This document shows, piece by piece, positions 1 to 56,595 of a stretch of 61,922 nt of DNA. The DNA comes from Rhynchobatus australiae. Lineage: Eukaryota. Below the pieces are notes generated by a model, which had not been told where the DNA came from, did not search any database, and worked only from the letters and a program-made list of their open reading frames with translations. Position 1 is the stretch's first letter. Every line of letters begins with the position of its first letter. Made by a program: the position numbers and the translations under genes. Location: NCBI GenBank assembly GCA_034780895.1, contig JAUZTB010000062.1, positions 21,677,586 to 21,739,507 on the forward strand, in the 5' to 3' direction.

Positions 1-277
1 ATCGCCTCATAGCTTATTACATCTTCCTCCCTCCCCCACCCACGTACCTTCCCCCTCTCACCTGAACTCACCTATCCCCTGCCTGTGTATGCTCCTCCCC
101 CTCCCCCCACCTCCCTATTCTGGCTTCTGCCCTCTTCCTTTCCAGTCCTGATGAAGGGTCTCAGCCCAAAATGTCAACTGTTTATTTCCCTCCAAAGATG
201 CTGCCTGATCTGCTGAGTTCCTCCAGCACTTTTGTGTGTTGCTCCAGATTCCAGCATCTGCAGAATCTCTTGTGACT
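1..277 (+). mobile_element. Penelope-like element 3' end/pLTR (pyrimidine-rich UTR, hammerhead motif, GATGCTGCCTGA..CTGCTGAGTTCCTCCAGCA tail)
   Basis: C/T-rich tract at 1-142, hammerhead-like core at 143-180, then the tail shared with copies at 6.4k, 36.5k, 39.9k, 42.7k and 56.5k. Confidence 0.75.
143..180 (+). ncRNA. Minimal type I hammerhead ribozyme motif, CpG-decayed
   Basis: CAGTC-CTGATGA-A-GGGTCTCAGCCC-AAAATGTC-AACTG. Departures from GAAACGTC-GACTG are all CpG-type transitions. Confidence 0.6.
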
Positions 278-459
278 CCAAGGAAATCATAGAACGAATA
301 CAATTAATTGTTGTTTCACTAATACTATTTAAATCAGACAGGTATCTGTGCCCAATAATGTTGACATCTTAATGTCATGTGACCTAAGCCCTGTTTAAGA
401 TTCTTGGAACACAGAGTAGCCATCTCAAAACTGGGTGGGGATACATCTGTGGAATACAA

Positions 460-700
460 TAGCATTGTGGTCAGGTTACTGGAACAACAATCCAAGGACC
501 TGGACTACCGCAGGGGCAACATCTGTGATAATAACTGGGGCATTTAACTTCTGTTAATTAAACAAATATCTAGATTTAAAGCTCAGATCAGTATCACTGA
601 CCACAAAGTCACCTGATTATCACAAAAAAAGTTCAATGACAACCTTTAGGGAAGGAAATCTGTCAATGATACCTGACCTGGCCTTGTTGCCTCTGCAATC
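460..700 (+). mobile_element. Old tRNA-derived SINE (chondrichthyan type), decayed
   Basis: tRNA-like head (GTGGTCAGGTTACTGGA..AATCCAAGG) and body ending CCTTTAGGGAAGGAAATCTG..CTGACCTGGCC, resembling a common shark SINE. Recognised from memory. Confidence 0.5.
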
Positions 701-3700
701 CTACAATATTAATAAATTTTTAAAAATATTTAATGCTGAACATTTTCCTTGCAATGGCATGCATAGTTGTTGTAAAAAACAGACTTTTGGTGAATGTCAA
801 GCTCCCTGTAAAATATAGGAAAACCTACAGAATATTGAATTGAAAGCTTGCCACATGGAACATCATACTGTCNNNNNNNNNNNNNNNNNCTAATGCCCCG
901 TTCAGCTGAGATTAATTTCAACTCGTTTGTCTCACCTTTAACTAAAACCAATCAAAGCCATCATTTATAACCCTCTCTGTGACCGGGTGTGTGAAGGTTT
1001 TCTGGACATACTAATTAAGTGTAAAAGGCTTTGTAGTACTGTGTTGGAAGGCTGCAGATGTGTAAATGAGCTGAAACATGGACTGAGGAATGTCAGTTTT
1101 ATAATGAAGTGTAAATGTGACATTTGTGAAATCAGTATGCTTTACATACCTGCTTTACAGTCAATAGGAATGAAAGGAATATTCTGATGCTCCTTTCATG
1201 TTCAATTTCAAAAGAAATTAAGGTGAGAAATAATATTTATTCATTTCATCGCTTATTTGAAAGCATCCTGCTGCCAATTTTGTTGTGTACTTATAAACAG
1301 TACGTAGTTGAGGACTGACTAATGGATGATGAATTCTGCTGATTTCATGCACATATGATCAATAATATGCTGAATAATTTGATTTTCTTCAAAGCATATA
1401 TGTGTACTTGCACTTTAGTTGCATCAGCTGCTAGATTAGAAAGACATGCTCAGTGAAATTTCATTTTGACCCAGTGTTGATTAGCAACACCTTCACTGTT
1501 GAGTGGTAAAGATGATGCATGGAAGTGGGGGGTGATGTGTCACATGACAGCTAGAGAAAAGCTTTATTGGCAGTTCTGGAGTACCTTGGAGTTTGGACAG
1601 ACATCCCTTTTCCTCATGGCTCCATATAAATCTCAAAATGTGTTTTTATTTTGGTGGCCACAGTTTGGCTGCAACAGCTGCTGAGGATCTGTGAGTAGAG
1701 TGAGACCAATGCCTGTTTCACAGACTATCAGCCAGCAGAGAGACCTGAAAGAGGTATTTTTGCCCTTTGCAAAAGGCTAACATCTAATAAAGCAGATTAC
1801 AACCACAGGTTATCTTTATATTCCAGAGGATTGAAATAATAATTGGTTGTGGAAGGTGAGAGCATGGTCCTAAAATGCAAATCTGTCATTATTTCCATTN
1901 NNNNNNNNNNTGTTATAAAGTTCCTGCAGCATAGAATATTAGACAAAATGCATACTCAGCCATACAAAGAAAGGCACTTAAAACCTCATAAAATGTTGAG
2001 TATAATAGTTAGAGCAAAGATCTTACACCATCTGTTAGGGGAACAGGTATAAAAATTGTACAACCCACCCTTTGAAGTTCACAAATAATTCATTCATTTG
2101 TCTTCAATGCTCTGTGAATGCCTTTCACTGAACATGCTTTTATTTTGTCTTATTCTTAACATTATGCTGTCACATTGCATTAAACTGCAGGCCTTCCAGT
2201 ATACTTATGCACATTAGACAGGTACTCAAAAAAATGTCCTGGCTAAAAAAAAAGGAGCATTTTCTTGTTCCAACTCATATGTAGGACATTGCAGTAATTG
2301 TGTTGTACTATGAATAAATTATGAAAATTCAAGTAGGTGGTGAATTTCAAGGCAGTAATATTAATTTTAAATGAACTACCCCACCCCTTCAACATAACAT
2401 CATCTGTTACGAAAATTTAACAGTGCCATTTTATATTGCAATGCCTAGAGATTTAAGTTAAAAAGCAGAGATTTGACACAAGGTTGTGTTCGTTATTTTT
2501 AATACTGTGCAGAAGTCATTTTCCATCCGAGATCATCAAGCAACCATCAGCTGCAGCCCTGATGAGGTTGGACAAGCAGCAGTCGACACTATTAATAACC
2601 TTGTTGGAAAGGGCAGGAAACCCTTGAGATTGCTTTTACAGCAACTCACTTTCTGATATCCCCAAGTGTACAGTTCAAGGATAGAGAAAGGGAAAATGAG
2701 GAGGTATGCCAGATGACTTCATTACATTAGAGAGTATCAAGAGGCCACAATAGTTCACTGATTCCATGTGGGATGCCATCTCATTCTGAATGACTCTTAG
2801 TTACAATTTAGTCTGGAAGTCAAAGTGAATAATAACTTCCTGTGTACTTTCTCATTTACTGTTGCATCTGAAGATTTCTCATGCTATGTGCCTTATGAGC
2901 TACGTGTTTTTTGTGGATTCCTTTTGTGGACAACCAAGAAAGTCCTTTTGCATATCATGCCTACAAATACATGAATCACAAGCTGCGCCCTCTTTATTCA
3001 AGGACTCCGCAATGGAATGTCAATCTCGAATTTTCTATAAACATAGTTGCAGCCGAGAGAACAGTTAATCACATAGCATGAAGCTTTTATATATGGCAGC
3101 CTAAAGCAACAATTCTTGATCCCAGCCACTATTGCATGCACTACATATGCTAACACACGTATGACAGGTAAGCTCCAATCTGCATCTTTAAAATTGACAT
3201 TTAACCCACACATAACCAAGCAAACTTTATATAAGTTGTTAGAAAAATAAAAATTATTTGCTCTTACCATTAAAGTATTTAATATCACTCATTTGTTGAT
3301 CTCTTTACTGAATGGATAGATGACCAAAAACTCCGGCCTGGAAACTTTTATGTACGGATCATTTTTTGTTACAAATGCACGAGATACAAGGAGTTCAAAT
3401 AAGTGCATGTTCTTTATACAAGGGCACCTCACAAATTGCCTCTCTGGAACTTCCTAGAAACANNNNNNNNNNCTTTCTTAACAATTATAAATTGGAGCTC
3501 CACAGTGTAACCTACAACCGTCATGGAATAGACACAGTAAAACCAGGAACACGTCATGTTACTTTGTTGGTTTTCTCTCCAGAACACCCTGATGACATCA
3601 GGAGACTTTACTGGGCAGATTCAATACTAACTACAGACTGTTCAAACACCTCCCAAACTCCAAAGAAGGTGCTAAACTAAGAGTGCTTTCTCAAACATTT

Positions 3701-4620
3701 AACTGCTGACATGTGCCTCAGCAACTTTTCTGACTGAGGCAGGGTCTATTGCAATGTCAGCAGCTACCATACCAGTGTGGCTTATCATTGCAAAATGAAA
3801 GATGATATTTCCTCTGAACGAGGGTGCATTTCAACAGTGTCAGTGTGCTCAGAATCAATTATCAATGACAAAAACAATCAACAGGTGCTCTCTGTCCAAT
3901 TCCTTGCTGTCTTTGTCTAAATTGAGATAATGAAAGTATGTGTGCATGGAGGCGAAAAAGAGCGAGAATGGGAGAGTGGGACCATGCGTGAGATTGAGAA
4001 GAGTGTGAGATAACAAGTGCATGTGCAAGAGAAAGATAAAATGAGAGTGAGGTAATGAGAGTAAATACAAGACTGAAGATAAGGGTGTGTGGTTTAAGTA
4101 GCTGCGTGAAAGAGCAGAATTTCTGTTGACCTAGATACCCTTGTGGCCACCTCCTGCCACTCTATTTCAATTGTGACACTTGTGGGTTGCCTGCCCACTT
4201 CCCAATATGCAGGGGACATCCCTACTGGCCTTTTTTTCTTGTACTAAGACATCTATGTCCCTTTGAGTAAACCTTGGAGCCATCACTCTCTCCCCTACAT
4301 ATGTAGGCCTCCCTCTCCTCCATGACAGCTACAGTGTGTGTTGCTGACCAGCTGTCATGGAGAGTGTACCTAAAGCCTTTTCAGCAAATTTGATGACTTT
4401 CTACCATATTCTGATTGGATGTTAGTGCTTTATGCAGTGCAGGTCTAGTGTACCAAAAGAAAGGCAATATCTAATTTTCAGAGAACACAGTCAAACTAAA
4501 TTGATCTCACTCTTCATGTTCTCAGAGCTGTTGACAACATTAAGCCAAAGTCAATGCCAATGAGCAAAATAAATAAACCAATAAATCATCTAACCAGAGT
4601 CTATTTCATTGCTGTTATAT

Positions 4621-5067
4621 TGTTACGGACTAGGTTACAATTAGTGAGGTTACTTTAAGATAGTGTGTGTGTGTGTGTGTGGTGCTTACGTCAACAGAAG
4701 ACAAAGAACGTCATGATGTTGTTGTTGCAACAACCAGTCAGAGTCAGTTTGAAGGAGAGACACACAGAAGAACAAGAGAGAGGAAGAGAGACACCAGCCT
4801 GCTTGTTTTCGCTATCAATGGATGAGAAACAATAACTGTGACTGTCACTGCAATCCATGTATGGATTGTTGAGAGTAATCCAGTGGAGTTCACTNNNNNN
4901 NNNNNNNNNNNNNNNNNNNNNNNNNNNNNNNNNNNNNNNNNNNNNNNNNNNNNNNNNNNNNNNNNNNNNNNNNNNNNNNNNNNNNNNNNNNNNNGTAGTT
5001 ATTAATAAAGTAGTTTTTAACACGTATACATGTCTCGGTGTGTTTCTGTTGTTGCTGGTACGTAACA
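4621..5067 (+). mobile_element. Solo LTR of an LTR retrotransposon (probably Gypsy-type)
   Basis: Perfect 7-bp terminal inverted repeats TGTTACG...CGTAACA (TG..CA). 4-bp TSD ATAT at 4617-4620 and 5068-5071. AATAAA near 5004. Contains an N gap. Confidence 0.8.
4663..4681. repeat. (GT)n microsatellite inside the solo LTR
   Basis: About 9 consecutive GT units. Confidence 0.9.
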
Positions 5068-5289
5068 ATATGCATGCAAAAGATTTCTATCATCTTTGCC
5101 TCTCTTTGTGAAAAAATATGAAGTAACAATTAATTTAATGAGGTGACTGAAAATGTTTACATTGAATATCTGTTTCTGAATTCTATCCAGAAGTAGAGAG
5201 AGCTCCTTCTTTAGGTTAATAAACAGCTCAACCGGGAATCTCTCCCTTTTAAACAGAACACTGTTTAATCAACACCATTAACTCTCCTC

Positions 5290-5505
5290 CTATCATCTAC
5301 CTACATTTTGGGCAATTTAGAATAGCCATTTAAATTATCAACCAATACATTTCTGGAATGTGGGTGGAAAATAGAGCACCCGGGAGAAACCCGTGCAGTC
5401 ACAGGGAGAATGTGTAAAAACAATATAGGCAGCACCTGGGTCAGGATCAAACCTCGATCACTGGTGCTGTGCACTGGCAGCACTAACCATTGTGCCACGA
5501 TGATG
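5290..5505 (-). mobile_element. V-domain/HE1-type SINE
   Basis: Reverse complement has a tRNA head (GTGGCACAATGGTTAGTGCTGCC..GGTTTGATCC) and the V core TTCTCCCTGTGACTGCACGGGTTTCTCCCGGGTGCTC. Confidence 0.75.
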
Positions 5506-6414
5506 CCTGATGCTTTCAACCAGAACTTCCCCTGGGGGTAAGGGTAGATAGGGTTCCGTTGTACCACAGTGATGGGAGCATAGCCAAGTACTAAAATTTC
5601 CAGGCTTTGCTCAAGGATTGCAGGATCATTAGAAAATAACCACATTTTTGGATAAGAGACCATCTTCAAAAATATCTGCAAACTTGGTACAAAGGATTAG
5701 AAAGTTGTATCATGTAGCTTTTGTGTTATGTTACCAAGATGAGGAATGAAATGATTCACTAAACATAATACAATGTGCATGAGTAAGTACTTATTGGAAT
5801 TTGAATGACATGGTTCCTTACATGCAACGTACCTATGTCCACAGGGTTCTGTGCACATAGTCATTTATGTCAATGGTTGTGCAATACATGTTTGAATCAC
5901 TGTTTCAACATTGGACAATTTGGGGTGGGAGGCTGGGGATGAAGAGAAACAGAATTCACTTGCCCATTAAGAACATTTGATAGCTAGCTGCTTATCCAGC
6001 TGTCAAACATTGACAAATTAGTAGAACATTTAGCTAAAATTAAGTCACCAAGTGTAAAATAGCCACACTAAGCCACAGTCCCTTGCAGGCATTCTTCTCT
6101 NNNNNNNNNNNNNNNNNNNNNNNNNNNNNNNNNNNNNNNNNNNNNNNNNNNNNNNNNNNNNNNNNNNNNNNNNNNNNNNNNNNNNNNNNNNNNNNNNNNN
6201 AGTCCCTTGCAGGCATTCTTCTCTGTTTCAATAAATAATGATGCTCTTCCTGCAGAACTTGCGTTCTGTGTCAGAGCTAAATCAGGAAAATGCAGGCCAA
6301 CAGGTCTGGGACCCTTGCACTCCACTGTATAGGTGCAGGAATCCTAAACTTGGTGGCAATTACACTGGGAAATGTCAGTGGGTCCAAGCAGACTGGACTC
6401 CTATCATAAATCTA

Positions 6415-6553
6415 ATGCAAGGTCCTGAAAAGGGTCCTGACCCACAACGTTGACCACCTGCTTTTCTCCACAGATGCTGCCTGGCCTGCTGAGTTCCTCC
6501 AGCATCACAGTGTTTTTCATCTAGGTTTCAGCAACTGCAGACCTATATTTCCC
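6415..6553 (+). mobile_element. PLE-derived short unit with hammerhead motif (GGTC/GACC stem-I subfamily)
   Basis: GGTC-CTGAAA-A-GGGTCCTGACCC-ACAACGTT-GACC (6421-6455), then the ACAGATGCTGCCTGGCCTGCTGAGTTCCTCCAGCA tail. Same subfamily as 42624-42804. Confidence 0.7.
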
Positions 6554-7689
6554 TAGCATTTGAAAGTTAACCACTACAGAGTTATAAAAGAAAGGATAAG
6601 TACAAATGGTAAACATCATAATTTCTCTCTAGTTCACCTCTCTAAAGTTACCTTAAAATTCTCCAATAAAAATTTAAGTGCTTTCATTTCCACTATCTTA
6701 TTGACAATGTTTTCTTTGTAATCATCACTGTATGCAAAATAATGTTGTAGAATCAGTCCTAAATTTTCCTTTGGGTTTTTTTTAAGACAGTATTCTTTTG
6801 TCCTAGTCTAACAGTTTAGGGTTTAGCAATTTCCTGTATTTACCTTTTACATATCACTTCATATAACCGGCCACCTTTAATTCTCCTCTATCAAAAGTGG
6901 AAACCTGTCCTCAACTCACTTTCAGACCCTAAAGCTCAACCTCACGGAAATGGCTGGAGAGTTTACTATGTTCCCAATAGACTGATTAGACAAATGAAAA
7001 TTATATGTTCACACTGTTTTATGGAACATCATCAAACTATTGTGGTACTCAATATGGCTGCAAGATGTATTTAGAGTTAAATTGTACACCTTATGTACTC
7101 ACCAATTCTATTNNNNNNNNNNNNNNNNNNNNNNNNNNNNNNNNNNNNNNNNNNNNNNNNNNNNNNNNNNNNNNNNNNNNNNNNNNNNNNNNNNNNNNNN
7201 NNNNNNNNNNNNNNNNNNNNNNNNNNNNNNNNNNNNNNNNNNNNNNNNNNNNNNNNNNNNNNNNNNNNNNNNNNNNNNNNNNNNNNNNNNNNNNNNNNNN
7301 NNNNNNNNNNNNNNNNNNNNNNNNNNNNNNNNNNNNNNNNNNNNNNNNNNNNNNNNNNNNNNNNNNNNNNNNNNNNNNNNNNNNNNNNNNNNNNNNNNNN
7401 NNNNNNNNNNNNNNNNNNNNNNNNNNNNNNNNNNNNNNNNNNNNNNNNNNNNNNNNNNNNNNNNNNNNNNNNNNNNNNNNNNNNNNNNNNNNNNNNNNNN
7501 NNNNNNNNNNNNNNNNNNNNNNNNTTCTTGCTTTAAAATCATTGCAAGACATTGTTTTGCTCCCCTATCAACGGGGGCAAAACATGACAGGGGGCACATA
7601 TTAAAATCCATCACTATCCTCACTGCTATTTGGGGTGAGATATTAGCAGGCTGATGCTCAACATAAAACTGAATTTTTTGTATCCCCTT

Positions 7690-11130: not shown

Positions 11131-11914
11131 TTTGCAATCAAATGTGAGTTCTGCCTGTGTATGCTATTTTATTCTCATGCTGCATCAACAATCTGGCTCC
11201 CACCACTATTCACCAACCTTTGGTGCCCATCATTCTCTCATTCAGATTCCCTACTTGAAACTAATTCTCTCTCTTCTGTTTTGATAATATTCTCAAAGCT
11301 TATATTTTTTCCAAGCCTTCAATTACCTCTCAGTTATCCATTCCCTCATCTAAGCCTCATACTATTCTATGAAGCAAATTAGGATGCTATGTATGTTCAT
11401 AGTGAAGTCTCAGGTTCCAGCTGGGCACATGCACAACTGTATTTATATTGAGGGTGCCAGGCCTTTCAGTTGTGTGACCTTTTGAGTAATTCTAGCAGGT
11501 TTTAAAATTTCTTCCTGTATTGACTCTAAATTTTAAGAGGTGTTCATAAATTATAAAACACAGATGTAAAATTTCGTAAAATATGCTGTACTAAATACAG
11601 TTATGCTGTGAAATATCATAAACTTAAAAAAAATATACATTTGCTCGTACATATATTTCAAAGAATAAAGTTGTCATCCTCAGTTGAAATTGTACATTAC
11701 TGGCAAACAGATATATGACCGAATCCGATCATCACAAGGCTGAAGTGTTTTAAATAATGACAATGACATGAATAACTCCAGAGCTCCTTCTTCCCTCCCA
11801 CATTTGCTTTGGGCTCAACAGAAATGAATTCAATTGTGGTTTTTAATATAACCCAGATTATTTATGGCCACTTGCAATGCACAGAAGAATTATCACCCTG
11901 TACACCACATGACT

Positions 11915-13330
11915 AGGCTACTACAGTGGAAGAGTTAGCATGGTTGCTTCACAGCTCCAAAGATCTAGGTTCAATCCTGACCTCCAGTGCTGTTGCGCGT
12001 GAAGTTTGCATATTCTCCCTGTGACTGCATGGGTTTCTTCTGGGTGCTCCAGTTTTCCAAAGACATGCAGTTTAGTCAGTTAATTTCCTACTGTAAGTCA
12101 TCCCTGGTGTACAAGTGAGTAGTAGAACTTGAGGGGAATTGGTATCGGTACATTATTGTCATGTGTACCAAGATACTGTGAGAAACTTTGTTGCGTGCCA
12201 GCCAGGCAGATCATGCCATACACAAGTACACTGAGGTAGCAATATAATGTTGCAGCTACAGAGAAAGTGCAGTGCAGGTAAATAAATAAAGTGCAAGGAC
12301 CGAGATGAGGTAGACTGGGAGATTGAGAATTAATCTTTTAAGCTTTTGTATCTTCCGCCTGATGAGAGAGGGGAGAAGAGAAAATGACTGGGGTGGGAGG
12401 GGTGCTTTGTTATGTTGGTTGCTTTCCTGAAGCAGCGGGAAGTGTAGATGGAGTCAATGGAGGGGAGGCTGGTTTACTTGATGGATGAGGCTGCATTTAT
12501 AATTCACTGCAACTTCTTGCGGTCTTGGGCAGAACTGTTGCATACAAAGCTGTAATGCATTTAGATAGGATGCTTTCTATGGTGCATCTGTAATAATTGG
12601 TAAGAGTCATCTGGGACATGCCGAATTTCCTTAGCCTTCTGAGGAAGTAGAGGAACTCGTGTGCTTTCTTGGCCATAACATCAATGTGGCTGGACTAGGA
12701 CAAATTGTTTGTGATATTTACACCTTGGAACTTGAAGTGCTCAACTATCTTCACCTCAGCACCATTGATACAGTCAGGGTCGTGTACTCCAGCCTGCTTC
12801 CTGAAGTCTATGACCAGCTCCTTTGTTTTGCTGACATTGAGGGAGACATTGTTGTCTTGGCACCATGCCACTATGCTCTCTATCTCCCTTCTGTACTCTA
12901 CCTTGTTTGCAAAGTCATCTGCAAACTTGTAAATGGAGTCAGAACAGAATTTGGCCTCACGGTCGTGTGTATATTGGGAATATAGTTAAGGGGCTGAGAA
13001 TGCAGCTTTGCAGGGCACCAATGCTGAGGATTATTATGGAGGAGGTGTTGACGCCTATCCTTATTGATTGTGGTCTGTTGGGCCGGAAGTCAAGGATCCA
13101 GTTGCAGAGGGGGATGCAGAGTCCTACATCCTGGAGCTTGGAGATCAGTTTGTTTGGAATTATGGTGTTGAAGGCCAAACTATAGACAATAAATAGGAGC
13201 CTGATGTAGGTGCCTATGTTCTCCTAATGTTCCCAAGATGGAATGTGGGGAGAAAGAAAAGGGTGCTTGATGGTTGACATGGAAACTGTGGGCTGAAGGC
13301 CCTTTTTCCACATTGTATGACTCTATACCA
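11915..13330 (+). mobile_element. HE1-type V-SINE interrupted by a Rex1/Babar LINE (SINE pieces 11915-12141 and about 13237-13330)
   Basis: tRNA head and V core up to GAGGGGAATTG. The sequence resumes as GATGGAATGTGGGG..GGGTGCTTGATGG..GGGCTGAAGGCCC, collinear with the intact copy at 33737-34065. Confidence 0.7.
12141..13215 (-). mobile_element. Rex1/Babar LINE 3' half (RT C-terminus and 3' UTR), decayed
   Basis: ORF 12957-13178: AFNTIIPNKLISKLQDVGLCIPLCNWILDF..RPQSIRIG..LSIGALQSCILSP. Also LYFLRRLRKFGMS. Tail CACAGTATCTTGGTACACATGACAATAA. Confidence 0.85.
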
Positions 13331-17164: not shown

Positions 17165-17255
17165 TCCTTCCTTCCCCACAGATATCGTCCGACCCACTGA
17201 GTTCCTTCAGCAGATAACTTACTGCTCCAGATTGTTAATCTCTGCTTCATCTCCA
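17165..17255 (+). mobile_element. PLE tail fragment without recognisable ribozyme core
   Basis: CCACAGATATCGTCCGACCCACTGAGTTCCTTCAGCA..GCTCCAGATT matches the PLE tail of the other copies. Confidence 0.5.
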
Positions 17256-20106: not shown

Positions 20107-21874
20107 CACTCCTGAATCTGATATGGAGAGAGATGCTGGAGTGTAGCCAGTAAAGCACAGACAGGGCTCAGCTCACAAGTTCAGGTCTGTCCATGTGTGT
20201 AGAAGAGGACAGTTTGAGCACACCTGTGACGTTTCCAAGAAAGTTCTGGTCCTTGGTATCTTTACCAGCATTTGTCCATTAGAGTTTTTCATTTCTCCCC
20301 ACCTCTTCGTGTCCTTCATGACAAAGAATCATCGGCTCACCTCCACGAAAGGCAAAAGTTTCAAAGTCCTCAGTTCAAAGCATTAAATTTTCAAGGATTC
20401 TCTTATTTATTGCTGTGAACTTTTATTAAATTGTAGGAAGTTGTAACTTCTAAATTACTTAAATTGTGAAATAAACTTCGGGGCAAAGCCAATTCTACAC
20501 TTTATATAGAGTAAAATTGTCCTTCCCTCTCTGGAGGCGTATCATCATTGATAAGTCACGTCTCTTATGTAAAAGTGTATGATCTACTGTATGGTGGAAT
20601 AGTATGTGTATTATAGGCTGCAGCCTAAGAGTAATTTGGCACTACTGTGAAGGCATAAAATCGAATTTACTGTGTGACCAAACTGTGTTGATGGCATGGA
20701 GTGTTTTATCACACACAGGGTTAAAGGCCTGAACCAGGCTTTGTGTTCGCACAGTGGAATAAATAATATTATCTCTTATTTCAAATAGTGGTGGAGTCTA
20801 AGTGATAGCTACACAAACAGTTTGAGGAAAAAGGCCTGACATTATAGCAAAAGACTTTGGTTTATATACCCTTTGGGTTTTGCTGTTAAAAGTGCACAGG
20901 TTCCTAAGGNNNNNNNNNNNNNNNNNNNNNNNNNNNNNNNNNNNNNNNNNNNNNNNNNNNNNNNNNNNNNNNNNNNNNNNNNNNNNNNNNNNNNNNNNNN
21001 NNNNNNNNNNNNNNNNNNNNNNNNNNNNNNNNNNNNNNNNNNNNNNNNNNNNNNNNNNNNNNNNNNNNNNNNNNNNNNNNNNNNNNNNNNNNNNNNNNNN
21101 NNNNNNNNNNNNNNNNNNNNNNNNNNNNNNNNNNNNNNNNNNNNNNNNNNNNNNNNNNNNNNNNNNNNNNNNNNNNNNNNNNNNNNNNNNNNNNNNNNNN
21201 NNNNNNAGTGTATTAGAACTTAATTTAATTCTGGTTATGGTTTAGAATATCTCTCATGATAAGAAATAGTACCAGATATTTCAATGAAAATTCTTGATGA
21301 AATGGTCTATATTCTGACTAAGAACTGTTTATTATATAACTGCTACTTCCAGTATAAAATGTGCTAATTGCTTACTCAGGAATCAGGCAGCATCATTGGA
21401 GAGAGAATCAGAGATTTTTGGCTGGATTGTGATGGATCAAGCCTGGACTCTCAGTGATTGCACTTTTCTTTTGTGACCATGCAGATCCCAATGTCCTGCC
21501 AGCCTTAATGTCCTCCTGTGGCCTCTTCTCAAGACTAAACACTCCATATGCAAGGACCAGACCACAGAATGTTGAAACTAAAGCCCCATCTACAGACCAT
21601 GCTACAGGCTATCCGATTGCTCATGATGGTCAGGATAATTTAGAAACAGTTAAAAACATCTTTCAGTATTATAAAATATTAATAACTAAAATTTTAAAAA
21701 AATAAAAGCATATTCAACTTATATAAATTAATTAAGAAGAAAAAGTTAATTAAAATAAAGTTTGGGGAAAAGACACTGACTTTCACTTACCCATTTTAGT
21801 GGTCAGTGACTTCATTCAAATGAATGGAGTTACACTAGACAGCAGCTACAGCTATGTTTCTCGTGTCTACCGTA

Positions 21875-22090
21875 ATCTTTCATCAGTGACATTGACCTGA
21901 AATGTTAACTCTGTTTCCCTCCACANNNNNNNNNNNNNNNNNNNNNNNNNNNNNNNNNNNNNNNNNNNNNNNNNNNNNNNNNNNNNNNNNNNNNNNNNNN
22001 NNNNNNNNNNNNNNNNNNNNNNNNNTCCCTCCACAGACGCTTGCAGAACAGCTGAGTATTTCCAGCATTTTCTCTTTGATTCCACTTTCC
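21875..22090 (+). mobile_element. PLE-derived unit with partial hammerhead (AACT subfamily), split by a gap
   Basis: TTTCATCAG (inverted core remnant) then TTGACCTGAAATGTTAACTCTGTTTCCCTCCACAGA..CTGAGTATTTCCAGCATTTT. Confidence 0.6.
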
Positions 22091-22499
22091 CATCATTTGC
22101 AGGAGTTTGCTTTCTGATATGCTGATGATGCATACAATTAAGCAAAGATAATTTATCAAAATGATTTAGAGTTCTTGCTCTTCTCATTAACAAATCACTT
22201 GTAGCTTGCCCAAGTGCCTTGGGTGTTCTTCTCATATAAAAATGTACGATCAAAGGGAACTTTTACACACTGCAACAACTATCAGGATGTATCAAAGCAC
22301 AAAATTCCTGATAAAAGTGTGCATAAAATTTATTAGTACTTCCAATTACGCTTCCGATTTTTTGTTCTGTTTTATCCTACATATAAAAATAAAGCACATG
22401 TCATTCTGAATCATCTAAAGTACTGAAAATCTTAACACATACTAGTTCCAATCCTATGAGACTGTAACTAACATGATTGTGACTGTGCATATAAGCATT

Positions 22500-36414: not shown

Positions 36415-36616
36415 CACAATAGATTCTGCAGATGCAGGAATTTGGAGCAACACACACAAAATTCTGGAAGAACTCAGCAGGTCAGGCAGCATCTATGGAG
36501 GGAAATAAACAAGTCGACATTTCAGGTCAAGACCTTTCATCAGCCCCTGATGAAGGGTCTTGACCCGAAAGGTCGACTGTTTATTTCCCTCCATAGATGC
36601 TGCCTGACCTGCTGAG
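36415..36616. mobile_element. Foldback PLE unit: two hammerhead-bearing tails head-to-head
   Basis: Inverted arms 36473-36543 and 36547-36616 (~70 bp, few mismatches) around a CCC spacer. Confidence 0.85.
36541..36579 (+). ncRNA. Minimal type I hammerhead motif, best-preserved copy
   Basis: CAGCCC-CTGATGA-A-GGGTC-TT-GACCC-GAAA-GGTC-GACTG. The mirror copy on the - strand (36511-36543) reads CTGATGA-A-AGGTC-TT-GACCT-GAAATGTC-GACTT. Confidence 0.7.
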
Positions 36617-39360: not shown

Positions 39361-39529
39361 TTCAAGCTTTACAAAGTCACATTCTACGAGTCTCCACAAA
39401 GATTTCCTGGAGACCAAGCATCAAACACGGAGATCCTCTAAATGGGAGCTCTGGATTGTCAGTCATGCAACAGACTTCTCAAATGTACCTTTGCTGTGGA
39501 AAATGTCTGGAGAAGCAAAAAAACAAAAC

Positions 39530-39700
39530 ACCACAGGAGCTAGAAGTCTGAAATAAATAGAAACTGCACAAAGAAAAGGAAGCAAGGTGAGCATTTCAGG
39601 CTGATGACCTTTCAACAGACTCCCAGTTTTGATGGTAGGTCATCGACCTTAATGGTTAACTGTTTCTTTCTCCACAGATACTGCCTGGTCTGCTCTTTTG
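39530..39700. mobile_element. Degraded foldback PLE unit
   Basis: GCATTTCAGGCTGATGACCTTTCAACAG faces CAGTTTTGATGGTAGGTCATCGACC..GTTAACT..CCACAGATACTGCCTGG. Confidence 0.5.
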
Positions 39701-39780
39701 CTTTTGAAGTCTAGAGCAATATTGGTCAACAGTGGAATTGGTGTAGATTTCAGAGTTCCAGTGAGAATTTGTATTGCAAA

Positions 39781-40056
39781 TTTTTAAAAATTGCAAATGC
39801 TGCAAATCCAAGAGAAAAACAGAAAATGCTGGAAATACTCACCAGGTCAAGCTACATCTATAGGAAGAGAAACAGAGTTAGCATTTCAGGTTGAAGACCC
39901 TTCATCAGAAATGGGAAGGAGAGAAAACGAGCTTCATTTTTCTCCTTCCCAGTTCTGATGAAAGCTCTTCGACCCAAAATGCTAACTTGGTTTCTCGGCC
40001 CAGAGATGCAATCTGACCTGCTGAGTATTTTCAGCATTCTTTGTGTTTATTTTCTG
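39781..40056. mobile_element. Foldback PLE unit with two hammerhead motifs (AGTT/AACT subfamily) and probable 11-bp TSD
   Basis: Inverted arms about 39815-39927 and 39938-40050. Cores at 39876-39912 (-) and 39951-39987 (+). Flanks TGTATTGCAAA (39770-39780) and TGTATTGTAAA (40057-40067). Confidence 0.8.
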
Positions 40057-42590: not shown

Positions 42591-42623
42591 CATTATTTTT
42601 CATCTGCCAACATGAATAACACA

Positions 42624-42804
42624 TACTATGATGCTGGAGGAACTCAGCAGGCCAGGCAGCATCCATGGAGAAAAGCAGGTGGTCAACGTTTCGGGTCAGG
42701 CCCCTTCTTCTGATGCTTCACAGATGCTGCCCAGCCTGCTGTGTTCCTCCAGCATCACAATGTTTTTCATCTAGATTCCAGCATCTGAAGTCCTTTGTTT
42801 CTCT
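42624..42804. mobile_element. Foldback PLE unit with one hammerhead motif and perfect 12-bp TSD
   Basis: TSD ATGAATAACACA at 42612-42623 and 42805-42816. The - strand core (42681-42712) reads CAGAAGA-A-GGGGC-CT-GACCC-GAAACGTT-GACC. Arms GATGCTGGAGGAAC..GGCAGCATC and GATGCTGCC..GTTCCTCCAGCATC. Confidence 0.85.
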
Positions 42805-44944: not shown

Positions 44945-45570
44945 TTAATAAAAACAAAAAATGCTGGATATTACTCCACATCAGAAAGCATCAAAAGGAA
45001 AAGAAACAGTGTTATGTTTCAGATAACAACCATAAGTGAGAAAAACAGAGATAAACAAGTTTTAAGAGACAAAGAAAAAAAGAAATGAGGAAGACAGAAC
45101 AATCTATTTTATGATAGCATAGATGGTGGGAGAGATTAAATGACAAATAGAATGATGATACAATATACAAGGATGATTGATTGGATTTTTAAGAAAATAA
45201 TATCAAAGGAAGCAAAATCTTTACCTGAAATCATCAAAAGGAAAATACAGTAGACACTAAAGTTAGAAATAAAACAACAAAGTACTAAAAATGTTCTATA
45301 AAATGCTGATTACCTGAAAAGTCCTTAACGTGTGCCCAGTTGAGAGATCATATGTGGTTCCTCAAGCTTAGATGTCAAAGAATTATGTGATGGATGAACA
45401 AAAGAGACTGAGGGAATTGAGTCATTTCACAAAACAGTCAACAATCTGCATTTGTCTCTCCAATCCAAAAGAGACTGCATTGTGAGCAGCCATTATAGTA
45501 TGTGAGGTTGAAAGAATGCAAGCAAACCACTGTCTCACCTGGAAAGTATATTTGAGACCCAGGATTGTAG
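44945..45570 (-). mobile_element. Penelope-like element fossil: GIY-YIG endonuclease fragment, 3' UTR and tail
   Basis: Reverse of 45440-45566 translates ILGLKYTFQVRQWFACI/SFNLTYYNGCSQCSLFWIGET (cf. PLE FQVRQRFTC.SSNLVYCIRCS.CGLLYIGET). PLE tail remnant at 44945-45030. Confidence 0.7.
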
Positions 45571-47719: not shown

Positions 47720-50090
47720 CCTTCAAGTTGATTCTGTACTTGAGTATTTATTGCTGTGTTGAATGACCAGGACACCAAAGTCCTAATGTACACCAATGTT
47801 TACATTTTTACTGCTTAAAACTACTGTTTTCCAGTCAAAACACAACCTCATATTTCCCCCATGTTTCATTCCTTCAGCCACCTTCTTGTCCACTCACTTA
47901 ACTTGCCTACATCCCTATGCAGACTTTTATTTAAATGTGATAAAGTATCTGTTTCGACCATCCTTTTAGGCAGTAGGAGCTATAGCCTTATCACNNNNNN
48001 NNNNNNNNNNNNNNNNNNNNNNNNNNNNNNNNNNNNNNNNNNNNNNNNNNNNNNNNNNNNNNNNNNNNNNNNNNNNNNNNNNNNNNNNNNNNNNNNNNNN
48101 NNNNNNNNNNNNNNNNNNNNNNNNNNNNNNNNNNNNNNNNNNNNNNNNNNNNNNNNNNNNNNNNNNNNNNNNNNNNNNNNNNNNNNNNNNNNNNNNNNNN
48201 NNNNNNNNNNNNNNNNNNNNNNNNNNNNNNNNNNNNNNNNNNNNNCAAGCTGTGATCTAAGTAGTGTTGTTTGCAATTCCAACATATCTTACCCAATCTT
48301 ACAGTCTGAACCTTGACTAATAAACAAAAGTATTTTACATGCTTTTAAAACCACCTTATTTTGTTACCTTGAGGATCACTCTGCCCCTCCTCAGTACACA
48401 GTCTCCTCCCTCTTCTTATCGCCCCAAATGTATTAATTTATTTCTCTGGCCTGAATTCCATTTGCTACTTTTAACCCCAAGTGATCAGCCCCTAAACATC
48501 ATCCTACAGCCTAAGGCTTTGCTCCTTTCTCAAACATATGACCAAAGTTTTGTTTCATCAGCAAACTTTCTTTTATTATTTCTCCCAACATTTGTCTAAA
48601 CCATTAATAGTGTATAAAGGGCAAAAATGTGTGCAGAGCCCTTTGAAATCAGGAGTCACAATCTTCCAATCACAAAAATACCTGCCAACCCTTTGCTTCT
48701 CACCAACTAAACAATTTTGGATCCAATTTGCCACTCTACCTTGGATCTGACAGGCTTTTATGTTTTTGAACAGCCTTCCGTGTGGGACCTTGTCATAAGC
48801 CTAAGTAAAATCTAATCAAATACAATTTCCTCATAGACCCTCTTTGTTACCTCTACAGAAAGTTCAGTCAAGTTGGTTAGACATGATTTTCCCTTAACAA
48901 ATGCATGCTAATTATCCTTGATTAAGCTCTGTTATTCTAAATGGTTTAGTAGACTGCCCCCTAGAATTGATTCTAATGATTTGACCATGAAAGTTAAGCC
49001 ATTTGGCTTGTACATACATCCATTTTTAAACAATGCTACAACATTAGCAGCGCTCCTGTACGTAGGGAGGATTGGAAAACAATAATCAGAGCCTCTGCAA
49101 TTTCCTCCCCTGCTTCTTTTAATAGCTTTAGATACATTTCACTCAAACCAATCAATTTCAGAATCAGAATCAGGTTTATCATCACTGAATATTTTGCAAA
49201 ATTTGTTGTTTTGCAGCAGGAGTACAGTGCAAGACATGAAAATTACTATAAGCTACAAAATAAATAAATAGTGCAAAAGAGGAATAACGAGGTAGTGTTC
49301 ATGAGTTCATGGTATGTTTAGAAATTTGATGGTGGAGGGGANNNNNNNNNNNNNNNNNNNNNNNNNNNNNNNNNNNNNNNNNNNNNNNNNNNNNNNCGAT
49401 GGTAGTAACATGAAAATGTCTTTGATGGTGAGGGTCCCTAATGATGGATGCCGCCTTCTTGAGGCACCGCCTCTCGAGGATATCCTCAGTGGCAGGGAGG
49501 CTTGTGACAATGATAGAGCTGGCTGAGTCTGCAACTCTCTGCAGCCTCTCTCGACCCTGTGCATTGGAGCTTCTGTATAGAGGTGATGCAACCTGTCAGA
49601 ATGCTCTCTACTGTACATCTATAGATATTTGCAAGAGTCTTTGGTGACGTACCAAATCTCCTCAAACTCCGAATGAAGTAATTTATTCACTTTTAGAGAC
49701 GCTGAACACCTTAATACTTCCACTCACATTACATTTATATCTTCCAATATTTCATAGCTTCCCTCCTCTTTCTGGAAGACATGCAGGAAAATATTCATTC
49801 ACCATCTTACCCACATTCTCTGCTTCACTTTGGTCTCGAATTGGCCATACATTTTTGTACTTCTAAAATATTTTTGAATTTTCTTTGATTTTACTTGTCA
49901 ATTTTTTTTCTTTTTCTTATTGTTTTCCTATTTTTTTCTTTTAATCTTACACTTCCTACAGTCTTCTAGGCAATATTAAGGTTTTGATGTCTGATGTAAA
50001 TTTCCCTATTTTGCCTTATATTATTCATCCAAGGAGGTCGTGATTTGGCAGTTTAACCTTTTTGCTTTTTGGGAGCATGTTTACCCTGAA
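47720..50090 (-). mobile_element. Old CR1 ORF2 remnant interrupted by Rex/Babar (49157-49680)
   Basis: Reverse landmarks DFGVLV, RKFADETKL, DFT*AYDKVPHGRL, HAFVKGKSCLTNL and EEIAEAL. Resumes after 49680. Confidence 0.65.
49157..49680 (-). mobile_element. Rex1/Babar LINE 3' fragment
   Basis: Reverse frames give YRCTVESILTGCIT, SLPATEDILERRCLKKAASIIRD and MLLPS..PSTIKFLN. Tail GATAAACCTGATTCTGATTCTGA. Confidence 0.8.
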
Positions 50091-51350: not shown

Positions 51351-51542
51351 TGCATTTGTGGTTTTTTAAGCCACAGAAAGCATCTTAGAGGTCGACGTGC
51401 CACAGACCTGAAGTGCCCTGACATGCCATGCCTCCATTTATTGGTTTAATGCAATTTACAGAAATCAATGACCTTTAAAAAGCAAAAGCACTCAGCATTA
51501 ACTAGCTTCCTCCCTTGACCTGTCTTTAGCCAGTCAAGCATA

Positions 51543-51713
51543 TAAGATAAGATATCTTTATTAGTCACATGTACATTGAAACACACAATGAAATGCATCT
51601 TTTGTATAGAGTGTTCTGCAGGCAGCCTGCAAGTGTCGTTATGTTTCCGGTGCCAACATAGCCTGCCCACAACTTCCTAACCCGTACGTCTTTGGAATGT
51701 GGGAGGAAACCAG
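51543..51713 (-). mobile_element. 5'-truncated V-SINE with Rex-like tail
   Basis: Highly similar to the 3' halves of 24271-24580 and 28851-29159. Confidence 0.85.
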
Positions 51714-51999
51714 ATCATTGCTTTATAATGATGCCCAACAAACCCCAATCAACTCGATGATTTGTGAATCCTGTAGAAGGTCTAGGCCAATACAGGGTCC
51801 AAGAACAGATTCCCCTGTAAAAGTTATGGGGCACCTCCAGTGCATTCCTACCTTGCCATAGATTTCACAAAGGTTTGAGCAGCAGAGCACAACTGGGCAA
51901 TTGCTGGCAGAGCTCAGCTATCAAAGTCAAGACTTCCACATTCATGCAGGAGGACTAAAGAAGCATTTTCACAGAGAAATGCTGACAATTATGATACAC

Positions 52000-52950
52000 A
52001 TATGGACTCCATATACTATTTCTGTCAGTATTCTTGTCCCTTGTTATTCCCTTTCTCCACTCATACTGATTTTATCTCTGAATCTTTCAGACCTAGATTA
52101 TTCATCACTTTTGTCTTTAGTTCGATCTTTTATCATTAAGGGATAATTCATATTCTTTTCCATTTCATCTATTCTCTATTAACAGCAAATACCCTGGAAT
52201 ATTCATTCCCAACTGTTGTCACAATTAGCTATTAGATCAAACCCATTTATTTCTCTTTGTGCCATGAGTTCATGGTCAAACTCTAGTGAATACTTTGCGC
52301 TTTCAGATGGCCTTTAAATTTTAAACTTTTTTAAAACAGAGGTTTGATGTTATTCACTGTTGCACTCTTGCCATTAACCCCCCTTATGTTTTCAGGTCAC
52401 TCTCTGTTTAAATCAAAATTGAACTTGTTCTTTGGCCTAAATTTTCATGTCCATGGCTGGGATATTGCAAGGAAATGCAACCAAATTTGGTGTTCCTATA
52501 AGTGCAAGCATAAAGTAGGAAATCCCAAATTAATAGCTATTTGTCAGCCTTTTCCAATTCCACGACAATGTTGGATACCTCAATTCTTCTCCCTGAAGTA
52601 ACTATCCAATTCCCTTTTGAAAAGGCTGATCAATCCACCTTCCCTTATGGGAAGTGTGTTCCAGATCATAATTATTCCCTTTGTAAGAAAGATTTTCCTC
52701 ATAGTCCCTTGGTGTGTTTCACCCAAAATTTTAAATCTGTGCTCTTTGTCCTTTAATTATCTAAACATGGGAGCAACTCTCCTCTACCTAATCTATTTAA
52801 ACCATTCATGGTCTTGTACAGCTCTATCAAATCTCTTTAAAAATATTTCTGTTGATTTCAACAAACAGAGCTTGACCCTACAAAAGCACCCTGGATTTGC
52901 AATTTGTGGGGCCATTTATCTTCAGAATAGTGACAAAATAACACTTACTT
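52000..52950 (-). mobile_element. Old CR1 fragments (endonuclease region and 3' end)
   Basis: GAATATTCATTCCCAACT..TTGTGCCATGAGTTCAT (endonuclease start) and GTGTGTTCCAGATCATAATTATTCCCTTTGTAAGAAAG (reverse of the FFTQRV..WN motif). Confidence 0.45.
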
Positions 52951-55519
52951 CCAGATTTTAAAGAAATCATAATCCTAACATCTTCTGCCTGGCTTCTCTC
53001 CAACACAAAAAATGGAAACAGAATATAAAGTTATACAATGTAATGAAGATTAAAATTACCCTAATTAAGAGAATGCTGTAATAAATAGCACAAAATTCTT
53101 CTATATAATTAGTAGATTTTTTACATCAGCACAAAATACTGTATAAATGAACTGCAACAAACCTAATTAACAGAAATGAATGAAATTCTAAAAAGGAGCT
53201 AGTTTGCCACATTTGAAATTAGTTTTCTCTTTACACATTCCATCTGCTAGCCTCTTAGTGTAGAGAAAATTCTTGGTATGTTACTGATTCTNNNNNNNNN
53301 NNNNNNNNNNNNNNNNNNNNNNNNNNNNNNNNNNNNNNNNNNNNNNNNNNNNNNNNNNNNNNNNNNNNNNNNNNNNNNNNNNNNNNNNNNNNNNNNNNNN
53401 NNNNNNNNNNNNNNNNNNNNNNNNNNNNNNNNNNNNNNNNNNNNNNNNNNNNNNNNNNNNNACACAGAAAGAGAGCAAATAGCCTTTCACAATTGCAATT
53501 CTGAACCTGTTTAAGACAATTAAAATTGGTGAATCTCTGCTGGTTGAAGTCAAGCTGAATGTTGACTGTAATATTCCAACTGCTGTCAAGAATTGCAAGC
53601 AACAGATTTTAAATTCCATGTAGACTCAGCACCATTAAAGATCTTACTTTTGAATCACAAATGTATGTTTGCAGTCTCCTTATTCTGTCAGTACTTGTCA
53701 ACATATGTTAACTTGTATGTTGTTACAGATGACAAGAGAGTGGGCAACAGCTGTTAAACTTTTCATAACTTTAGAAGTGGGCACTAATGAGTGAAAACTG
53801 GACACTGAGAATAGAACCATAACCTGTGGCTAGAAATTGGAATTCAGATATTTTCGATGCATGAAATGGGAGCTGCATTTAGGCCTAACACCCAGTCAAG
53901 GGATCAGCAAAGAAAGTTCAATCCATAAAAAGTACTTTTACGATATTATTAGAGTGGTTTGCACCCTTTTCCCTTCATTAAATTGGCCTGCACATTTCCT
54001 AAAGGCAACAGAGTTTACAGGTTACACGTCATTCCTGCACTGACTGCTGAAAGCAAGCCAATGCCTTAAAATCCACTGTCCATGGCAGCCACAATACTGT
54101 AGCATAAAGGTTGCCATGTTGGGGAGGTAAAAGGCTGGGGTTGTGGAGGAGCTACTGGAGCAGAAGGAAGGTGGAGCCCAGAGCCTTTAATGTCTCTGGG
54201 CATAAATCCCTGCTCCTGTGATTGTTTCCGCATGTTCCAGTGAAGCTGCNNNNNNNNNNNNNNNNNNNNNNNNNNNNNNNNNNNNNNNNNNNNNNNNNNN
54301 NNNNNNNNNNNNNNNNNNNNNNNNNNNNNNNNNNNNNNNNNNNNNNNNNNNNNNNNNNNNNNNNNNNNNNNNNNNNNNNNNNNNNNNNNNNNNNNNNNNN
54401 NNNNNNNNNNNNNNNNNNNNNNNNNNNNNNNNNNNNNNNNNNNNNNNNNNNNNNNNNNNNNNNNNNNNNNNNNNNNNNNNNNNNNNNNNNNNNNNNNNNN
54501 NNNNNNNNNNNNNNNNNNNNNNNNNNNNNNNNNNNNNNNNNNNNNNNNNNNNNNNNNNNNNNNNNNNNNNNNNNNNNNNNNNNNNNNNNNNNNNNNNNNN
54601 NNNNNNNNNNNNNNNNNNNNNNNNNNNNNNNNNNNNNNNNNNNNNNNNNNNNNNNNNNNNNNNNNNNNNNNNNNNNNNNNNNNNNNNNNNNNNNNNNNNN
54701 NNNNNNNNNNNNNNNNNNNNNNNNNNNNNNNNNNNNNNTTTGTTGGAGTGCCTTTTGCCATAGTCTTTCTAATGATGTGTTGCACAGCAAGCTGTTGTCA
54801 GACAAACAGCTTGGCACCCTCTACAGGGCACCAGGAACCTGTGTGAACAAAGCAGGCAACGGTGCATCTATTGGCTGGGAAAACTATTGTTGACAGCTTT
54901 GAGTCTAACTCATGAAGTACAGTTACAATATTGATTTAAATGACAAATCAGGTACAGGAGACAACAAAGAAAAAAGATGAAAAGAAATATTGGATTAAGA
55001 AACAGAGAGAATAAAAGTAATAAGAAGTTTCATTCTTTTAAACAGATTCAATTATGATTAAAAGTCAAAAGAATGAGAACCATATTTGTAAAGGTTAATT
55101 TTTAAAGATGGAGGTCAACAAGTAGGATTTACTATAGCATTTGTAAGTTATCACACTAAAATTGTTCGTGAGTTTAATTTGTATTCATGAAGTAAAATAA
55201 AATTCATGTCATTCTATGAATGGGGAGTCAGAAGGCAAAACGCATGATCAGGAAAGTTTTGGAAGAACATTGCAACTCAGACAACAAGTTCTCTATTTTT
55301 TTAATGATTAACCATGTGTGCTGTCACCAGATGTTTTTGTATATTTTGGACAAGCATTGGAAGAGGAACNNNNNNNNNNNNNNNNNNNNNNNNNNNNNNN
55401 NNNNNNNNNNNNNNNNNNNNNNNNNNNNNNNNNNNNNNNNNNNNNNNNNNNNNNNNNNNNNNNNNNNNNNNNNNNNNNNNNNNNNNNNNNNNNNNNNNNN
55501 TAAAAAGAATGTAAACCAA

Positions 55520-56595
55520 ACAAAAGCTGCTGGTGCTGAAATTCTGAAATAAAAACAGAAAACAAAGGTAACATTCAGAAAGTCAGGCAGCATCTGTGGA
55601 AAGAAAAACAGAATTAATTTTGTCCTTCTAGAAAGGGTAAGAAGTCTCCTTCTGACATCTAACCCTCTCTGGATCTATTCACCACCAATTGCCAATGCAA
55701 TATCAACTGCCTCAATTTTCCATTACCCTCACCCATTCTAACCTGCCTCTCTCTGAATTTGCAGCTCTCCACTACTAAGGTTCAGCCCCAACTTTGTCAT
55801 CAAACCCACCAACAAGGAAGTGCTTTTGTGGTTTCACAAACTGACAAACTGCACTCCATCTTGTAGAAGCTGCCTGAAGCACTGAGTGGCTTCAGCTGTT
55901 TGTGTTTTTGCTCCAGACTCCAATATCTGCAGTCTCTTTTATCTCCCCAAGAGGAATGTCTAGGCAGACAGAATGTTTCAGACTGCACTTGCCCCACTGA
56001 ACTTATTTCTTGCCTTGGCTTTGTCCTTTCTCTCTTGGTTCAGTCCTTTCCCACTTACATCCACACCTCTGAATAGGTTCCAGTATCCAAGTCCTAGTCA
56101 GCTCATCTCCCAATGGATGTCCAATCCCTCCACATCTCAATTCCAGAACAGGGTTGCAGCTTTCAGAATTCAATATCAAATTCAACAATTTCAGGTGACC
56201 TGCTTTTTCTGTTTGTGTGAGAACCAGTCAGTTCTGCTGGAAGCTTACCCATCAGTAATATTAACTCAGATTTTCAGTCTCCACTGACACAGTATTCTCC
56301 TTTTGGTTTCAGGTTTTAGCACAGATCTAATCTACATTTCACAGCTTTTATACATCTCTTTCTTTATTTTCTCTCTTTCAAACTACCATCATTAATACAG
56401 CTACCAGATGGTTTCATAAACAGTAGAATCATCTTGTCAACCTTGCCCTTTCTCTATCAGAGGTGTTCCCTTTTCTCTGTCCATCCTTTGCAACTTCCAT
56501 GTTACCAGTTCTGATAAATGATCCTCAACTCAAAACACTAACTTTGTTTCTCGTTCCATTGATGCTGCCCAACCTGTTGAGAATTTCCAGCAACC
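55520..56595 (+). mobile_element. Internally deleted Penelope-like element: inverted 5' pLTR, DKG region, GIY-YIG C-terminus, 3' UTR and hammerhead tail
   Basis: Inverted tail at 55520-55620. LDLFTTNCQCNINCLNF..THSNL..PNFVIKPTNK (IKPADKG motif) at 55670-55818. Extra tail at 55855-55945. LQLSEFNIKFNNFR* ends at 56198. Decayed core AGTT-CTGATAA..AAAACACT-AACT at 56507-56543. Confidence 0.75.

Follow-up and report, generated by a model that had tools for sequence, protein, structure and literature searches.

The window analysed here, a stretch of 61,922 nucleotides from Rhynchobatus australiae (assembly GCA_034780895.1, contig JAUZTB010000062.1, forward-strand positions 21,677,586 to 21,739,507), contains a dispersed repeat family carrying a minimal hammerhead ribozyme motif. 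The copies are probably dead, 5′-truncated 3′ ends, that is, pseudo-long terminal repeat (pLTR) fragments, of at least four related subfamilies of endonuclease-bearing Penelope-like elements (PLEs), with the hammerhead that is found at PLE termini. The finding is mostly ordinary, since these are worn copies of a motif already known from PLEs in other animals. The window is non-coding, 4,278 of its 61,922 bases are N, and it is depleted in CpG (observed/expected 0.16).

By homology the hammerhead-bearing sequences are one repeat family, detected far above chance. A profile built from 11 copies gave 18 matches at E<0.01, these 11 among them, and no match below E=1.6 in the reversed window, while a covariance model built from 10 copies gave 16 matches at E<0.001 among the 21 matches listed. 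All eight motifs and both partial motifs reported in an initial annotation of the window were recovered at the same coordinates and strands, and self-BLAST together with the profile places every one of them inside a longer repeat; the eight had been taken as separate instances and belong in fact to six insertions, those at 36.5k and 39.9k being inverted pairs. The 18 pieces total 1,646 bases (2.9% of the non-N sequence of the window) and represent about 13 loci, seven of which hold a full hammerhead block, amounting to ten copies and to about one hammerhead-bearing insertion per 8 kb. Weak possible extra fragments at 26799-26825 (-), 56229-56288 (+) and 11466-11505 (+), with E values of 0.04-0.5, are outside all counts. 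A scan of prokaryotic genomes returned only one 22-nt chance match, in an actinobacterial contig of 67% GC with dissimilar flanks.

When the ten hammerhead copies are parsed position by position they fall into four subfamilies: S1 (143+, 36543- and 36547+), S2 (6421+ and 42712-), S3 (39908-, 39955+ and 56511+) and S4 (39618- and 39629+). The pieces and their surroundings are as follows.

1..276 (+): copy a, S1; the pyrimidine-rich upstream part runs off the window start, and the downstream segment has a long 3′ end.
143-180 (+): hammerhead block of copy a; C3 at 148, predicted cleavage after 175, G12 changed to A.
6421..6556 (+): copy b, S2; hammerhead at 6421-6455, long 3′ end; helices I and II intact, with a 1-nt core deletion, G12 changed to A and A13 to C.
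17173..17212 (+): old fragment of the downstream segment, without hammerhead (profile E 0.0012; covariance model E 1.8e-05).
21374..21413 (-): old fragment, beginning about 2 nt past the predicted cleavage site.
21877..22117 (+): copy k, S4-like; the 10 nt that open the core (21877-21886) are inverted in place and read on the minus strand, and the remainder of the motif follows them directly at 21887-21925; then come a 100-N gap, the downstream segment and a long end.
36415..36543 (-): copy c, S1, left arm of the 36.5k inverted pair; long 3′ end, abutting an N gap; both core boxes intact, helix I 5′ arm absent.
36547..36616 (+): copy d, S1, right arm of the 36.5k pair; short 3′ end; the two core boxes are preserved, helix I is broken.
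39500..39621 (-): copy i, S4, left arm of the older 39.6k inverted pair; internal deletion, left boundary approximate.
39622..39704 (+): copy j, S4, right arm of the 39.6k pair; core heavily mutated, helices I and II intact.
39770..39780 and 40057-40067 (no strand): target-site duplication of the 39.9k pair, 11 nt with 1 mismatch.
39781..39930 (-): copy e, S3, left arm of the 39.9k pair; C at 16.1, long 3′ end that outreaches its partner by 27 nt.
39936..40056 (+): copy f, S3, right arm of the 39.9k pair; C at 16.1, G12 changed to A, short 3′ end.
42612..42623 and 42805-42816 (no strand): target-site duplication of the 42.7k pair, 12 nt, perfect and AT-rich.
42624..42712 (-): copy g, S2, left arm of the 42.7k pair; helix I 5′ arm absent, short 3′ end.
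42717..42804 (+): right arm of the 42.7k pair; begins past the hammerhead and exceeds its partner by a 42-nt tail.
44948..45021 (-): old fragment whose start falls in the GAAA half of the motif.
55519..55623 (-): fragment with a long 3′ end, beginning near the helix I 3′ strand.
55864..55943 (+): downstream-segment fragment with a long 3′ end.
56505..56595 (+): copy h, S3; hammerhead at 56507-56543, short 3′ end; G8 and G12 changed to A, C at 16.1, helix II damaged.

At 39500-40067 the two inverted pairs belong to different subfamilies and stand about 80 nt apart, an arrangement that may reflect insertion beside an older copy. The inversion in copy k involves no duplication and differs in this from the four inverted pairs; the 10 nt shared across its N gap suggest that the two sides belong together.

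At the family level the motif has the CUGANGA and GAAA boxes at the correct spacing. CUGANGA is exact in five of the ten copies and GAAA in five, both being exact in three (c, d and e). A single nucleotide separates A9 from position 10.1; the initial annotation had described it as an extra A in all copies, which holds for nine, the tenth having T. Helix II is paired in 35 of 40 cells and is recovered unaided by RNAalifold, its 10.1-11.1 pair being G-C in four copies, A-U in three, G-U in one and broken in two. Helix I provides the type I closure and is paired in 22 of 24 cells among the six copies that retain its 5′ arm, the arm having been lost at inversion junctions in the remaining four of ten. 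Positions 15.2-16.2 are palindromic with no loop III, and read CG in two of ten copies, GG in two and TG or CA, the products of CpG decay, in six. U16.1 is present in six of the seven copies outside S3, giving S1, S2 and S4 both the A15.1-U16.1 pair and an NUH triplet; C stands there in the S4 copy 39618- and in all three S3 copies (from two insertions), leaving S3 without either feature. The window motif fits the metazoan PLE minimal hammerhead consensus (PMC4209133, Fig. S3). That the motif is a minimal type I hammerhead of the PLE terminal-repeat kind, as first proposed, is supported, and the proposed PLE origin agrees with both the published consensus and the insertion anatomy described below. 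The stems had been read less accurately. No single copy has the CAGTC/GACTG form of stem I (in 143 CAGTC is combined with AACTG, in 36547 GACTG with AGCCC), the stem I given for 36543-, 36547+ and 42712- relies on a 5′ arm that is absent at the inversion junction, and the sequence GAAACGT[C/T] does not describe the AGTT/AACT copies at 39876-39912, 39951-39987 and 56507-56543, all of which have C at 16.1.

Three stem pairs are altered on both sides among the subfamilies with pairing retained: 2.1-1.1 is C-G in S1 and S2 and U-A in S3 and S4, the fourth pair of helix I is G-C in S2 and A-U elsewhere, and 10.1-11.1 is A-U in S4. The stem covariation noted earlier is nevertheless only suggestive. 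With the unmasked alignment of ten related copies the observed score was reached by 86 of 500 shuffles, which is not significant. Masking the four arms cut at junctions leaves 57 paired cells among 64, a score matched by 0.7% of shuffles; this masking was picked after seeing the data, and the result ignores relatedness and for helix I leans on one copy (6421). Downstream of the hammerhead there is no second conserved structure (3 pairs, -0.14 kcal/mol, no two-sided change).

The lack of significant covariation in the unmasked alignment is one of several features that would be expected if the motif were a hammerhead look-alike with incidental stems, lying in an unrelated short repeat such as a miniature inverted-repeat transposable element (MITE) or the tail of a short interspersed element (SINE). 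No copy is intact, and an Rfam scan of the window gave no hammerhead match at the gathering threshold or at E<=10 (the miRNA-family matches it did return are the inverted pairs). A structure descriptor independent of the family found 0 matches with an intact core in the window and, when a single core change and a mispair in each helix were tolerated, 3 matches against a mean of 0.92 in 12 shuffles. Folding of single motifs is weak, with z-scores from -1.66 to +0.97 and none below -1.7, and the plain I+II form is the minimum-energy structure in just one of ten copies. Since the Rfam scan was negative and the structure-only search near chance, the case rests on the family-level pattern and not on single copies. 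It is at that level that a look-alike becomes very improbable: the core boxes, their spacing, the extra nucleotide, the CG palindrome and the position of the NUH triplet all match the published PLE consensus, and the three two-sided changes keep the stems paired. Identification as a MITE was rejected on the inverted arms, which are unequal, and on the frequency of single-arm copies.

The absence of an intact hammerhead from all ten copies bears out the earlier suggestion that they may be inactive, and ribozyme activity of the present copies is judged unlikely from their sequences. Of the 20 CpG sites in the motif copies, 13 show TG or CA (two of the TG stand opposite A10.1 and may form genuine A-U pairs), four of the five losses of G12 are to CpA, and other core positions are changed in 8 of 90 cases. 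Within each inverted pair the arms were identical when inserted and today share 72-91% identity, having diverged by 9-28%, which together with the CpG-focused damage indicates neutral decay of old copies. Only 36543- and 36547+ (copies c and d) combine both core boxes with U16.1, and at 39.6-39.9k motifs on the same strand are separated by 290 and 326 nt; from such features it could be argued that some copies are still active as ribozymes, cutting host transcripts or giving rise to circular RNAs. There is hardly any likelihood of this. Copies c and d are without helix I and locked together in a hairpin of about -127 kcal/mol, the motifs at 39.6-39.9k carry core changes and also lie within inverted pairs, and even intact PLE motifs cleave poorly (PMC4209133). 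Dimerisation, which had been proposed to rescue the loopless stem III, is not favoured at these loci, where the pairs are head-to-head and a transcript would contain one sense and one antisense arm in a single long hairpin; the folded transcripts of the inverted pairs give such hairpins, sense arm against antisense arm, at -27 to -139 kcal/mol.

The anatomy of the insertions points to truncated PLE 3′ ends. Their own 3′ ends fall into two classes, 94-104 nt (8 of the 18 matches) and 53-76 nt (6 of 18) past the predicted cleavage site, the remaining four being cut by deletions or gaps. By contrast the 5′ ends scatter from beyond the window start (beyond -147) to +48 nt relative to C3, a scatter that, in a repeat with neither tRNA head nor B box nor tandem array, indicates 5′-truncated insertions of a longer PLE. 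The inserts are only 40-290 nt long. Thirteen of the 18 matches begin upstream of the cleavage site and one within 3 nt of it (the ends being approximate), which argues that uncleaved RNA was the usual template. Head-to-head inverted pairs occur at four loci (36.5k, 39.6k, 39.9k and 42.7k), their inversion junctions lying 1-22 nt upstream of C3, and in both pairs with two readable flanks a 3′ tail, of 42 and 27 nt, is present on one arm only; the 36.5k pair appears alike. The same two pairs with clear flanks, among 12 loci tested, are bounded by target-site duplications (TSDs), for which the scores were reached by 0 of 400 random site pairs at 42.7k and by 5 of 400 at 39.9k. In copy a, at least 140 nt of pyrimidine-rich sequence precede the hammerhead, and translations of 72-228 match the unnamed proteins P0004 and P0005 from other records. 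Some of this upstream sequence recurs in those records and thus belongs to the repeat, making the element longer than the common fragment. A further unnamed predicted protein, P0003, appears to span two head-to-head copies of this repeat, which implies that this arrangement is present in other records and gives rise to spurious gene models.

On this anatomy and on the motif a PLE origin of the repeat is very likely, membership depending on these two lines because no reverse transcriptase or GIY-YIG domain is tied to the repeat. Several observations weigh against the interpretation as truncated PLE ends. All 284 stop-free frames of at least 55 aa were compared with Pfam and gave LINE-type (long interspersed element) reverse transcriptase fragments and weak noise, with no PLE reverse transcriptase or GIY-YIG domain, and a full phmmer search with the translated repeat found three unnamed spurious open reading frames (ORFs) and neither a PLE nor a relevant Pfam domain. 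Ten of the 12 loci tested have no clear TSD, the alignment ends of old copies are approximate, and nine of the 5′ ends cluster from -22 to -1 of C3, a pattern that may also arise from a short non-autonomous template. Word-based protein searches were similarly negative: P0001 gave 88 candidates, none at E<=1, alignment A3 gave 8000, none at E<=0.1, and P0004 matched only itself. The conserved ATG that follows a YAG was considered as the start of a PLE ORF and rejected, both S2 copies that reach it having an in-frame stop and the differences among subfamilies, on inspection of the alignment, not being mostly synonymous.

The clustering of nine 5′ ends within 22 nt upstream of C3 and the lack of an ORF beside any copy would also be expected of a dedicated non-autonomous PLE derivative of 130-150 nt, a SINE-like element or retrozyme monomer with its own transcription that is moved in trans by a PLE. 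Such derivatives are known (PMC8557442; bioRxiv 10.64898/2026.07.22.740005), and a SINE-like family of this kind was what the initial annotation had favoured. It is unlikely here, given that the full set of 5′ ends runs from beyond -147 to +48, that copy a has at least 140 nt of upstream sequence partly recurring in other records, and that the copies have neither an RNA polymerase III head nor tandem units. No tRNA head or B box was found in the hammerhead copies; the sole B-box match of the window (24327) lies in another repeat, and with the scattered 5′ ends this led to rejection of a SINE identity. Likewise no tandem array with a period above 18 was found in the window, where adjacent copies are all inverted, and without head-to-tail tandem units the identity of a non-LTR (long terminal repeat) retrozyme was set aside.

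The reading of the copies as truncated PLE ends can be cast as a mechanism, in which steps one to four are proposed from the anatomy together with published PLE biochemistry and the fifth, decay, is evident in the copies themselves. An autonomous PLE elsewhere in the genome would be transcribed, and its GIY-YIG endonuclease would cut AT-rich DNA, after which reverse transcription would begin at either of two sites, about 55-70 or 95-105 nt past the hammerhead cleavage site, yielding the short and long 3′ ends. In the Anolis PLE, reverse transcription begins at two internal sites downstream of the hammerhead, which define the tail, targets are AT-rich, the hammerhead cleaves only with protein, catalytic mutants insert normally in vitro and uncleaved RNA is the main template (PMC11167929). 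Reverse transcription would then read through the uncleaved hammerhead and often stop or fold back in the roughly 25 nt that precede the core, leaving single truncated copies or head-to-head pairs with a tail on one arm, and repair would leave a TSD of 11-12 nt. The copies subsequently decayed neutrally, first at the two CpG sites of the motif. Cleavage by the hammerhead of the parent element was probably weak, occurring in a dimer or with PLE protein; the present copies would not cleave.

Subfamily S3 provides the single mildly new lead. Its three copies with C16.1 come from two independent insertions, one of which supplies two of them as its arms; as both of these arms share C16.1, the template probably carried C already. 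Judging from these three copies, S3 probably underwent transposition two or more times although its ribozyme was crippled. A 15.1-16.1 mispair has been treated as disqualifying, some variants keeping low activity (PMC3088659). A more speculative and rather improbable extension is that S3 retrotransposed after losing A15.1-U16.1 and that the motif was kept for a role other than cleavage, as a structure that makes reverse transcriptase stop or fold back, the inversion junctions being just upstream of the core, and possibly as a splicing switch. By eye, a branch-point-like YURAC in S2-S4 overlaps the cleavage site and the helix I 3′ strand and is followed by a pyrimidine tract and then YAG|AUG; in S3 it reads CUAAC, created by the same U-to-C change. 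This reading of YURAC and YAG uses the general splice consensus. If it were true, a folded hammerhead would mask the branch point and tip the balance towards the unspliced template, with a bearing on the question of why introns persist in PLEs. S1 is without YURAC, the sample is tiny, and in a strand that is 55-60% pyrimidine such splice-like sites arise easily. Pyrimidine tracts ending in CAG are also present at the helix I 5′ arm at 132-147 and 39940-39954 (+), the corresponding tract at 39909-39925 (-) ends in CAT instead, and a second and third YAG lie downstream of the tract. The intron of the Drosophila virilis Penelope ends at the 5′ end of helix I (PMC4209133).

Other repeats in the window are distinct from the hammerhead family. 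A separate tRNA-headed SINE family, with a B-box-like match at 24327, a shared core and an AT-rich tail, is found at 24240-24570 (+), 28850-29150 (-), 51540-51720 (-), 5340-5470 (-) and 11950-12075 (+), and presumably resembles V-SINE/HE1-type elements. Decayed LINE fragments at 7860-8390 (+), 24700-25200 (+), 48580-48930 (-), 12500-12985 (-), 49490-49690 (-) and 23140-23310 (+), which we assume to be of CR1/L2-like type, have RVT_1, ALKBH8_N-type and endonuclease Pfam matches and are unrelated to the hammerhead repeat.

With these copies the genome joins the list of vertebrate genomes rich in PLE hammerhead relics, and the label of PLE relic is useful for about 3% of the window, which without it would stay unclassified. 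Were the copies as dense across the whole genome, they would form a large natural data set on what PLE hammerheads do, allowing large-scale measurements of covariation between subfamilies, of where 5′ ends and inversion junctions fall with respect to the cleavage site, and of a subfamily whose core is non-canonical. A literature search found no paper on shark or ray PLE hammerheads or on this family, although Repbase or Dfam may already hold it, and the conserved motif of the repeat is absent from the full texts searched and from the supplement of PMC8557442.

Among known systems, the non-LTR retrozymes (PMC7229834; bioRxiv 10.64898/2026.07.22.740005) are alike in being non-coding, PLE-related and equipped with a type I hammerhead, and PLE-related retrozymes are reported in the one chondrichthyan sampled (bioRxiv 10.64898/2026.07.22.740005); they differ in forming head-to-tail arrays of defined units, of which there are none in the window. 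The hallmarks of PLEs, namely 5′ truncation, an inverted pLTR, a tail of 30-40 bp at one end and a short TSD (PMC3846280; PMC8557442; PMC8969392), with TSDs of 8-10 bp, head-to-head junctions and solo pLTRs also described (PMC3846280; PMC8557442), provide a closer comparison. As in Penelope of Adineta vaga (PMC3846280) and PLEs generally (PMC8557442; PMC8969392), the window has head-to-head pLTRs with a one-arm tail, TSDs of about 10 bp, 5′ truncation and solo pLTRs, but it has no ORF-bearing copy and its inserts measure just 40-290 nt. The Poseidon element PAc of Anolis (PMC11167929) is known from protein and activity, the window family from DNA alone, and the ORF of PAc starts at helix II, where the window frame closes within about 20 codons; the two are alike in their AT-rich targets, in inserts that span the cleavage site and in two classes of 3′ end about 60-100 nt past it.

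The nearest counterpart is the set of minimal hammerheads described by Cervera and De la Pena in 2014 (PMC4209133). The genomes of Schistosoma, coelacanth and Xenopus have about 2,000-9,000 each, most of them single and attributed to truncated PLEs; pairs on opposite strands also occur, and a nucleotide between 9 and 10.1, G10.1-C11.1 and a palindromic 15.2-16.2 are general features (PMC4209133). The novelty of the window family was accordingly overstated at first, single hammerheads from truncated PLEs, the extra nucleotide and the palindrome all being present in that work. Differences lie in the short helix II of the window (4-5 bp), in A10.1-U11.1 of S4, in C at 16.1 of S3, against U in the Fig. 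S3 rows examined, and in the host, there being no cartilaginous fish among the rows of Fig. S3 and Table S1 examined. In other respects the two sets are alike: both have CUGANGA with the extra nucleotide, GAAA and the palindromic 15.2-16.2, a helix II opening with G10.1-C11.1, no loop III, a short helix I and U-rich flanks, and both consist mostly of single copies from truncated PLEs together with opposite-strand pairs, in several families per genome.

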